From a virus (taxonomy: Duplodnaviria > Heunggongvirae > Uroviricota > Caudoviricetes): a stretch of DNA of 4,000 bases. Both the position numbers and the translations under genes were made by a program. Position 1 is the first letter of the stretch. Every line of letters starts with the position of its first letter. The notes beneath the pieces are model-generated. The model searched no databases. It was not told where the DNA came from and saw nothing but the letters and a program-made list of their open reading frames with translations. The DNA is taken from IMG/VR virus record IMGVR_UViG_2711768018_000015; one strand, given 5' to 3'. Shown here one piece after another: positions 2,256 to 4,000 of this stretch.

Positions 2256-2392
2256 TATTCATTCTTCCAGATTCCTTCCGGCAGAGCCTTATACTGAAAT
2301 ATACCTGGCTCAGGATATTGTTGAAAATATTTTATGTTTGTCAAAAATAAAAGTTCTGTTAAGTATTGATTGAGTGTTTGTTATACGGTCTA

Positions 2393-2719
2393 ATGGTTTT
2401 TTCAGCATTAAATATTTATCATTCATATGGTGTGGGTAGAGTGAATATTGATGAGGCGTCGGGGTGTTTCATCCTTAGGCAGCGTATTGATATAGTCAAT
2501 GCAGCACGAGCAAAGGCCTTCAGCCGTTTGACAGTTTTGTTCTGTACTCCTGATCGTCTTTCGGGAAGAGACGTTATTATTCTGAATAGTGATGCTATAC
2601 AGAGGGTTTGCGATGAGTTCATGGTTGCTAATTCAGAATTATTTGCTCTTGTTCAGGAGTACAACAGAATAGCCAGGACCTGTGGTATGGATGAACTTCG
2701 GATTACTCATCTGGGGTAG
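2393..2719 (+). CDS. Hypothetical cargo protein (orphan ORF A, about 92-108 aa depending on start), rich in rare codons
   Basis: Open frame 2366-2719. Possible starts are ATG 2393 (no SD) and GTG 2441 (weak GGTG/GGG upstream); none is strong. Of 11 Arg codons, 6 are AGA/AGG; of 10 Ile codons, 3 are ATA. The composition is protein-like. It lies 110-185 nt downstream of tRNA-Arg(UCU), in the position stxA occupies in Stx phages. No homolog recognised. Confidence 0.4.
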   Translation: MVFSALNIYHSYGVGRVNIDEASGCFILRQRIDIVNAARAKAFSRLTVLFCTPDRLSGRDVIILNSDAIQRVCDEFMVANSELFALVQEYNRIARTCGMDELRITHLG

Positions 2720-2822
2720 ATACATATCTGGATTATCACCTGTTACGGTAAAAAGTGATTGCTTACTGTTTTTGTGAATGGCATTGCAGCAGCCGGATAA
2801 TGTCAGTGCTGGCTGACGGTGT

Positions 2823-2830
2823 GCTGGTGG
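2823..2830 (+). other. Chi recombination hotspot octamer 5'-GCTGGTGG-3'
   Basis: Exact match to the E. coli Chi sequence on the + strand, inside a GT-rich stretch (2806-2850). Confidence 0.6.
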
Positions 2831-3110
2831 CGGGTGTGGTGGTTGTTGCTTTCCCGTTGCTGAAAAAGAAAACGCCAGACTGTTAGCCGGGTATCAGTTA
2901 GCGGGAGAAATTTTTAAATACTTCACAATTCAGGCGGTTGACTGTTGTCTGGTTTGCGGGGAGTTTGTTAAAAGAAACTGGCATGGTGAATCCCCCTGTG
3001 CGGAGGGGCAATCAGCGAGTAGGTATATGGGATAATCGCGGATTCAGGTGCTGGTACTGAATTCACCGGGAGGCACCCGGCACCATGCAATGGCACATAG
3101 CGCCACTCTC

Positions 3111-3140
3111 CAGCCCCTCTCCGGAGGGGCTGTTTATATT
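3111..3140 (+). terminator. Rho-independent terminator (9-bp perfect GC-rich stem, 4-nt loop, T-rich tail)
   Basis: CAGCCCCTC (3111-3119), loop TCCG (3120-3123), GAGGGGCTG (3124-3132), then TTTATATT (3133-3140). It sits tail-to-tail between the two convergent cargo ORFs. The U-tract is on the + strand only, so it is mainly a + strand terminator. Confidence 0.65.
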
Positions 3141-3166: not shown

Positions 3167-3502
3167 TTATGGACTTTGTTGTTTTAGTCCATAAGGACAT
3201 ATTTGCAGAGTGCAACGGTTATTAAAGCATTCATTCAATACGTTATCTGTATTTGTAGGGCATTCCTGGCTATTTTTGATTGAATTCCAGAATGTTTTAT
3301 TGAATGGTACTACGTTGTAAATGGTTACAGGTAGCACTTTGTTATTGAGCATGATGCCTGTGTGAGTCAGTGTAAATATACTTTCAGGAGGTAAGAAAGC
3401 ATCCGATTGATACCAGATTATTAATTTTATTTTACTCCATATGACTGAAAAAGATATTCCGCATGATGGCTGGATAACTGTATCAATCACAATCCACTTC
3501 AT
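3167..3502 (-). CDS. Hypothetical AT-rich cargo protein (orphan ORF B, 111 aa) with a C-terminal Cys-x9-Cys-x4-Cys-x4-Cys cluster
   Basis: ATG at 3500-3502 (minus strand) is preceded by AAGGAA with a 6-nt spacer, a good RBS. Of 13 Ile codons, 6 are ATA, and GC content is low (I did not compute the exact value). The sequence has no obvious signal peptide. The C-terminus reads ...[27 protein letters not shown].... No homolog recognised. Confidence 0.5.
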
Positions 3503-3597
3503 TTAGTTTCCTTGTTTATGCCTTGCTGGTGATGTTCTGAAAAGTATAAATGATATTTTTGAATGTAAACCATAGAGCAGAATTATTTTTCTGATGT

Positions 3598-3611
3598 TGT
3601 TTATTGTTTAT
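3598..3611. repeat. Tandem direct repeat TGTTTAT x2 within an AT-rich divergent intergenic region
   Basis: TGTTTAT at 3598-3604 and 3605-3611. Further GTTTAT copies occur at about 3514, 3626 and 3645. The significance is unknown and may simply reflect AT-richness. Confidence 0.3.
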
Positions 3612-3762
3612 TTAAATGCAGGGTGGTTTATATCTCGTCTTGTAGTTTATCCATGCATATCTGCTTGATAATCAGGTTTTTATTTAAGGTATGGTTTTGT
3701 GTTTTTTCTGTATTACATGTCAGGTATTTTAAAGAATTATTTTTCAGATGGTGGAAAGAACC

Positions 3763-3936
3763 ATGGCATTTAAACACTATGATGTTGTCAGGGCGGCGCC
3801 GCCGTCAGATCTTGCGGAAAAGCTGACACATAAACTGAAAGAGGGCTGGCAGCCGTTTGGTAGTCCGGTGGCCATAACCCCTTATACCCTGAGGTGTACT
3901 GGCAATAGCGGACACTACCATTTGTTCTTTTTTTAA
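3763..3936 (+). CDS. Small conserved phage protein, DUF1737-like by recollection (57 aa from ATG 3763; alternative ATG 3748)
   Basis: Product MAFKHYDVVRAAPPSDLAEKLTHKLKEGWQPFGSPVAITPYTL... resembles my memory of small proteins found upstream of lysis cassettes in E. coli prophages. ATG 3763 has a GGTGGAAAG SD-like element upstream; ATG 3748 has none. The C-terminal tail ...RCTGNSGHYHLFFF looks atypical. Confidence 0.5.
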   Translation: MAFKHYDVVRAAPPSDLAEKLTHKLKEGWQPFGSPVAITPYTLRCTGNSGHYHLFFF

Positions 3937-4000
3937 GCAGCCATCTGATGATATTTTTCCCTGAAGGCTGCCGGGGAGATATTCCCCAGACGAGAGTGAC

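Follow-up and report, generated by a model that had tools for sequence, protein, structure and literature searches.

The minus-strand open reading frame near one end of a 4,000-nucleotide stretch of viral DNA (the whole stretch analysed here, referred to as the window) is very probably iraL, a moron of a lambdoid prophage that is transcribed from its own σ70 promoter and whose product blocks RssB and thereby stabilises σS in logarithmic phase. The reading frame had been singled out as ORF B in a first-pass annotation made from the sequence without database searches. Among the RssB anti-adaptors of E. coli and Shigella, IraL is the fourth (Hryckowian et al. 2014, mBio 5:e01043-14; PMC4045071). 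The name of the gene, its function, its promoter, and its distribution are already known; it has been characterised since 2014 and is annotated routinely by the NCBI pipeline. The window can therefore be taken as a calibration case, in which a reading from sequence alone correctly picked out the gene, the hexamers of its promoter, and its character as a host-modifying gene expressed in the lysogen. The part that the literature we found does not cover is a near-invariant four-cysteine tail at the C-terminus of the protein.

Identity of ORF B and of its allele

The list of open reading frames and a script agreed on a gene of 111 codons with an ATG start (Table 1). Its product matched the NCBIfam profile NF007393, "anti-adapter protein IraM", with 162 bits (the cutoff is 121), residues 1-110 being aligned with positions 1-113 of the 114 in the profile. 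A phmmer search matched it to chain A of PDB entry 8twd, which contains residues 1-78 of IraM, with E = 6e-31. When the window was aligned with the potB prophage of strain CFT073, the iraL coding sequence of CFT073 and ORF B were identical at 334 of 336 nucleotides (99.4%), the two differences being one silent change and one that replaces Leu74 with Ser (L74S). Hryckowian et al. (PMC4045071) draw the boundary between iraL and iraM at a nucleotide identity of at least 95% over the whole coding region. ORF B lies above this threshold, while iraM of the K-12 type is only ca. 70% identical to it by blastn. A blastn search with ORF B alone returned two classes of sequences, one ca. 95-100% identical (1,415 records) and the other, K-12-type iraM, ca. 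70% identical; these classes are the iraL/iraM split described in that paper.

The 1.8-kb neighbourhood of the gene was found by megablast in 862 complete E. coli genomes at a coverage of at least 80%, and the reading frame is annotated there as IraM. RefSeq uses the name "anti-adapter protein IraM" for the same gene, in the same context, in CFT073 and in E. coli 042. General-purpose family collections said less about it. A Pfam search with ORF B gave no meaningful match, model PF11183.13 barely detecting the family even in the case of a Klebsiella member; the precomputed Pfam matches, made with PF11183.15, assign the family to PmrD (PF11183). The PHROGs entry reads "unknown function" only. 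The match to NF007393 and the near-identity to iraL of CFT073 bear out the proposal that the minus-strand reading frame is a real gene. The description of it as an orphan was mistaken, for the gene belongs to a curated family, the structure of a homologue has been solved, and one paper is devoted to it.

Table 1. Coordinates of iraL and associated features in the window
Feature	Position	Strand	Remarks
iraL coding sequence	3167-3502	-	111 aa and TAA stop; Shigella allele with Ser74; from NF007393 and comparison with CFT073
Residues 1-78, PmrD-like β-barrel and helix	3269-3502	-	Predicted RssB-binding core; from 8twd match, AF2, and Foldseek
Four-cysteine tail, C81-x10-C92-x4-C97-x4-C102	3197-3262	-	Codons 81-102; ends ICPYG
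Shine-Dalgarno AAGGAA	3508-3513	-	5 nt before ATG; inside the published mRNA 5′ end
5′ leader, 33 nt	3503-3535	-	Transcription starts at 3535 (minus-strand A)
-10 element TATACT	3543-3548	-	7 nt before the transcription start; same sequence in CFT073 and E. coli 042
-35 element TTTACA	3564-3569	-	Same sequence in CFT073 and E. coli 042
GC-rich nine-pair hairpin	3111-3132		35 nt past the iraL stop; T-run on the + strand only; terminator scan

The AT-richness and frequent use of ATA noted at first were confirmed. The GC content of ORF B is 34.5% (33% at third codon positions), whereas RusA and Q in the window have ca. 49%, and six of its 13 Ile codons are ATA. The further suggestion of a recent acquisition from a low-GC donor did not hold up in a comparison with K-12 iraM, which has a GC content of 34% and ATA at 8 of 18 Ile codons. 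Low GC content and ATA bias are common to both genes and are therefore traits of the family that give no sign of recent acquisition; the ATA bias is older than the split between iraL and iraM.

A tRNA gene with the anticodon CAT lies just upstream in the prophage and is called tRNA-Ile by RefSeq in CFT073 and 042. In the window, a run of N at positions 1590-2203 hides phage tRNA genes, as can be seen from the identical locus of S. sonnei 53G. The CAT tRNA of that locus corresponds to window positions ca. 2003-2078, and a tRNA-Arg (TCT) to ca. 2179-2255, its 3′ end being the unmasked segment 2204-2255. A tRNA-Ile with the anticodon CAT is of the lysidine-modified type, which reads ATA. If the tRNA-Ile call is right, the CAT tRNA of the prophage could read the six ATA codons in iraL.

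The exact ORF B protein carries the database name "MULTISPECIES: anti-adapter protein IraM [Shigella]" and is encoded on ca. 1000 contigs, those of S. sonnei 53G among them; the collection searched lists it in 4016 blocks. Positions 3480-4000 of the window, the junction with an insertion sequence (IS) included, are base-for-base identical to S. sonnei 53G. We conclude that the window is a prophage remnant of Shigella sonnei and that ORF B is its iraL. The Shigella-named allele is marked by codon 74 (window 3282), which is TCA in place of TTA.

Position 74 is occupied by Leu or Ile in all other close relatives. The Ser of the window allele is part of the protein's single helix, beside the equivalent of IraM Leu75, a residue that contacts the C-terminal domain (CTD) of RssB, and the allele is for that reason possibly weakened. 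This substitution, together with the degraded neighbourhood, in which a DUF1737 gene is cut at position 3893 by an IS3-family element and more IS elements flank the locus, would be expected if iraL were a decaying passenger, dead or weakened and turning into a pseudogene in an IS-disrupted Shigella remnant. We consider such decay improbable. The reading frame, its Shine-Dalgarno sequence, and its promoter hexamers are intact, and the exact Ser74 protein has been kept on all the contigs counted above. In addition, deletion of iraL from S. sonnei is reported to give a σS phenotype, though the strain and allele are not stated in the parts of the paper available (PMC4045071). A functional iraL is the reading that we retain, and the Ser74 allele would be expected to behave like that of CFT073.

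Promoter, transcript ends, and prophage setting

The first-pass annotation had placed a promoter of the gene's own, with a TTTACA/TATACT pair, between positions 3503 and 3620. This prediction proved correct, as the pair lies immediately upstream of a transcription start that had been mapped in CFT073 by 5′-RACE. With RNA from mid-log cells, the iraL product begins ACATCACCAGCAAGGCATAAACAAGGAAACCA (PMC4045071); 31 of these 32 bases match the window, and the first of them falls at the start given in Table 1. In the same paper, transcription of iraL is ascribed to σ70 acting at a predicted promoter, and the complementing fragment is described as extending from "-100 to +33", a boundary with which the length of the leader in the window agrees. 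Between these limits, the window differs from CFT073 at two positions, -1 (A instead of G) and +31. The criterion used there for the promoter region of iraL is an identity of at least 96% to CFT073, and the window, with two differences, identical hexamers, and the mapped start present, falls within it.

The spacer between the two hexamers is 15 nt, which is sub-optimal. Because of this length, the real promoter is missed by a generic σ70 scan requiring spacers of 16-18 nt, in the output of which the TTTACA/TATACT pair is not listed. Two other sites that the scan does list were considered as the iraL promoter and rejected, as neither has support from the RACE data. Regulation by PhoP, as in iraM, was likewise considered: a PhoP-box-like string is present at 3598-3614, but it was matched equally well in 145 of 200 shuffled sequences and was discarded. 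The upstream regions of iraL and iraM cannot be aligned. As for the ribosome-binding site, the AAGGAA motif recognised at first is present, while its distance from the start codon had been overestimated by one nucleotide, the spacer being 5 and not 6 nt.

Downstream of iraL, the hairpin listed in Table 1 is conserved in CFT073 and 042. It is read as a terminator of the + strand, since its T-run is found on that strand only; the terminator scan of the window revealed no U-run terminator for iraL on the minus strand. The hairpin therefore probably ends rightward transcription, and for the iraL mRNA it would provide at best a hairpin-only 3′ end. It lies past the 3′ end of iraL, at the point where transcription from there and from the DUF3927 side converges, and would block an antisense run into iraL unless RNA polymerase is modified by Q.

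The gene order is common to CFT073, E. coli 042, and the phage genome ON470612: RusA, Q, tRNAs, small reading frames including one for a DUF3927 protein, iraL on the opposite strand, DUF1737, and holin/lysozyme/Rz. With Q upstream and holin and lysozyme downstream in the intact relatives, the orientation of the gene against the late genes was rightly recognised from the sequence. Since iraL opposes the late operon, it cannot be expressed by Q-dependent late transcription, which would instead traverse the gene in the antisense direction. The interval from Q and the tRNAs to the lysis cassette is a classic moron slot of lambdoid phages; stx of the Stx phages is a moron in the Q-to-lysis slot. 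Several properties mark iraL as a moron: it lies inside a prophage, its GC content deviates, and its promoter is directly upstream of the published start. The cassette is also present, between Q/tRNA and holin, in a phage genome record (ON470612). Lambdoid morons such as stx, and bor in lambda, resemble iraL in deviant GC content, possession of their own promoter, and a host phenotype conferred from the prophage. Unlike the toxins and surface proteins that such genes encode, the iraL product is a cytoplasmic regulator.

Some morons are defence genes, and superinfection defence was raised in the first-pass annotation; a prophage gene for superinfection exclusion or anti-phage defence would share the position, the orientation, the AT-richness, and the separate promoter of iraL. 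Such a function nevertheless appears extremely unlikely: no PADLOC family matched at E ≤ 1, the PHROGs label is "unknown function" only, and the IraM/IraL family has a different, demonstrated target, RssB, whose inhibition is the known activity. The alternative suggestion of a lysogenic-conversion gene can be upheld in the broad sense of a moron, because both expression without induction and an effect on the host have been published: a mid-log transcript in CFT073, and a σS phenotype in CFT073 and S. sonnei.

Several other elements of the window were identified in passing. Similarity to E. coli prophages ends at 3892, and positions 3893-4000 belong to a multi-copy element, present at as many as 43 sites in one genome and on plasmids too. 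In the S. sonnei loci, this segment is part of an IS3-family transposase gene (HTH_Tnp_1 and rve domains) on the opposite strand, which truncates the DUF1737 gene (3748-3936). The reading frame at 2366-2719 (+ strand; probable ATG at 2393, 108-117 aa) matches PHROG 2873, of unknown function, end to end with E = 4e-70; its annotation in phage mEp460_ev081 is "hypothetical", and there is no PGAP call for it in CFT073 or E. coli 042. Positions 2755-2886 (+ strand) encode the 43-aa DUF3927 protein (95.6 bits in Pfam), which belongs to PHROG 1470, [quoted passage not shown]; its gene adjoins iraL and is likewise small and of the moron type. The Q antiterminator gene (694-1548, + strand) codes for 284 aa and is a different allele from the Q genes of CFT073 and E. 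coli 042, which are 822 nt long. Q also showed a weak similarity, at 29 bits and below the Pfam cutoff, to the DnaJ-type CXXCXGXG zinc-finger repeat.

Protein core, RssB contacts, and function

Structure prediction, which had been recommended at the outset, reproduced the fold of IraM. The AF2 model of ORF B has a mean pLDDT of 86.8, with values of 89-97 over residues 1-78. In Foldseek comparisons, the first AF2 model superposed on 8twd chain A with a TM score of 0.90 and an rmsd of 1.2 Å, and matched PmrD (4hn7) with E = 7e-4.

In the crystal structure of the IraM-RssB complex, the contacts form three clusters, on the N-terminal domain (NTD), the CTD, and the linker of RssB (PMC10844676). All five IraM residues of cluster I (I4, I6, W22, K26, and I42), which faces the 4-5-5 surface of the RssB NTD, are identical in IraL. 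Three of five are identical in cluster II, directed at the CTD, where the changes are T13S and L75I, and two of four in cluster III, directed at the linker, where they are H63N and I64V. The substitutions at these contact positions are conservative. [quoted passage not shown] The retained NTD contacts would fit the reported NTD-only binding, and the four differences from IraM fall among the CTD and linker contacts. IraL appears, from this pattern of conservation, to use the same NTD contacts as IraM.

The effect on the host has been documented in the same paper (PMC4045071). Both CFT073 and S. sonnei have less σS in log phase when iraL is deleted, and the half-life of σS in CFT073 then falls from ca. 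5 to ca. 2.5 min; conversely, σS is raised in K-12 cells that carry iraL under its native promoter. In later work, iraL (c1429) was up 1.6 log2-fold after a shift to 37 °C, and IraL levels were up in a fur mutant. The rise at 37 °C would be compatible with repression by H-NS, a possibility raised in the first-pass annotation, but is no demonstration of it.

In the mechanism that we adopt as very probable, the constitutive σ70 promoter drives production of IraL during growth, leftward and against the phage late operon, the 33-nt leader with its good Shine-Dalgarno sequence serving translation. The PmrD-like core of IraL would occupy the face of the RssB N-terminal receiver domain that is needed by σS, and RssB so occupied would be unable to deliver σS (RpoS) to ClpXP. 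As a result, σS would accumulate in logarithmic growth, before any stress, and the general stress response would be pre-armed.

PmrD (4HN7, 2JSO, and 2RQX), a PhoP-activated protein that binds the receiver domain of phospho-PmrA, has the same small β-barrel and helix fold as IraL. The two also share their logic, a small protein acting on the receiver domain of a response regulator (PMC10844676), but differ in target. The PmrD chains, of 81-88 residues, end where the cysteine tail of IraL begins. The matches of the predicted fold to all three PmrD structures, the precomputed assignment of the family to PF11183, and the reported binding of IraL to a receiver domain only, the RssB NTD (PMC4045071), could be read as pointing to a PmrD-like connector with another response regulator, e.g., PmrA, as its target instead of or besides RssB. 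This we hold to be highly improbable. Sequence identity to PmrD is merely 14-21%, direct interaction with RssB and a σS phenotype have been published (PMC4045071), and the literature found on IraL reports no partner other than RssB. Inhibition of RssB thus remains the function assigned here.

Among characterised proteins, IraL of CFT073 (c1429; WP_000871291.1) is the closest: the gene, its length, the promoter hexamers, and the neighbours (Q, tRNAs, DUF3927, iraL, and DUF1737) are the same as in the window. The window differs from it by L74S, by single bases at -1 and within the leader, by the IS elements that cut the prophage, and by its Q allele. IraM of K-12 (YcgW, b1160; PhoP-activated; 8TWD) matches NF007393 as IraL does and has 61% ungapped amino acid identity to it over 107 residues. 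It shares with IraL the fold, the four C-terminal cysteines, AT-richness, and ATA bias, but its gene adjoins e14, while iraL sits in the Q-to-lysis slot.

The four-cysteine tail

A cluster of four cysteines at the C-terminus, with a possible role in metal binding or disulfide formation, had been noted in the first-pass annotation. The cluster is present, but the first spacing is x10 rather than x9; a script placed the cysteines of ORF B at residues 14, 81, 92, 97, and 102. A profile search of 1.84 billion representative sequences returned ca. 45 full-length relatives of 108-125 aa, with identities down to ca. 20%; proteins of ca. 260-3000 aa that matched in several stretches were set aside as repeat-protein noise. 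By their database names, the relatives sampled come from Salmonella, Citrobacter, Enterobacter, Intestinirhabdus, Kosakonia, Klebsiella, and Cronobacter. A contig scan with a closer alignment returned six loci, all from Escherichia or Shigella, and was uninformative on other genera.

In a 43-sequence alignment of the family, C81, C97, and W72 are present in every sequence, and C92, C102, and P103 in all but one. Few positions in the family are thus as highly conserved as the four tail cysteines. Cys14, which is at an IraM contact position, is not conserved and is replaced by Thr in 35 of the 43 sequences. When the tail alone was aligned in 29 sequences, all four cysteines and the Pro that follows them were invariant, with the spacing C-x10-C-x4/5-C-x4-C. 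The confidence of AF2 in the tail depended on the sequences supplied: pLDDT was below 50 with 12 close sequences and 65-73 with 43 diverse ones, a short helix and a β-bridge then being predicted as well. In the structural study of IraM, residues 79-107 were removed, the full-length protein being proteolysed or unstable, and the tail was described as less conserved and flexible (PMC10844676).

The proposed role in metal binding or disulfide formation gains weight because the four cysteines are near-invariant across the family. In a cytoplasmic protein, a near-invariant set of four cysteines would favour metal binding or redox switching over structural disulfides. A profile of the tail gave four matches among PDB sequences, with E values of 0.056-0.95, none of them significant; they include at least three zinc fingers of the tristetraprolin CCCH (C3H1) type, the remaining match carrying just the name "Cytoplasmic zinc-finger protein". 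Our literature search on IraM and IraL found no study of the four-cysteine tail. We tentatively suggest, as a possibility that we rate well short of an even chance, that the tail forms a conserved module, either Zn(Cys)4 or redox-sensitive, by which IraL, IraM, and related proteins are controlled in their stability or activity. If so, the IraM/IraL/RssC anti-adaptors would take metal or oxidative input on σS at the protein level, beyond the regulation of their promoters, and the instability that kept full-length IraM from being crystallised would also be explained.

In a genome labelled E. coli ECGI0523 (CP178306.1, positions 5001-5318), a family member only 32% identical to IraL occupies the chromosomal site that holds iraM in another E. 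coli, which suggests that allelic diversity at the iraM locus is much deeper than the dichotomy of iraL and iraM.
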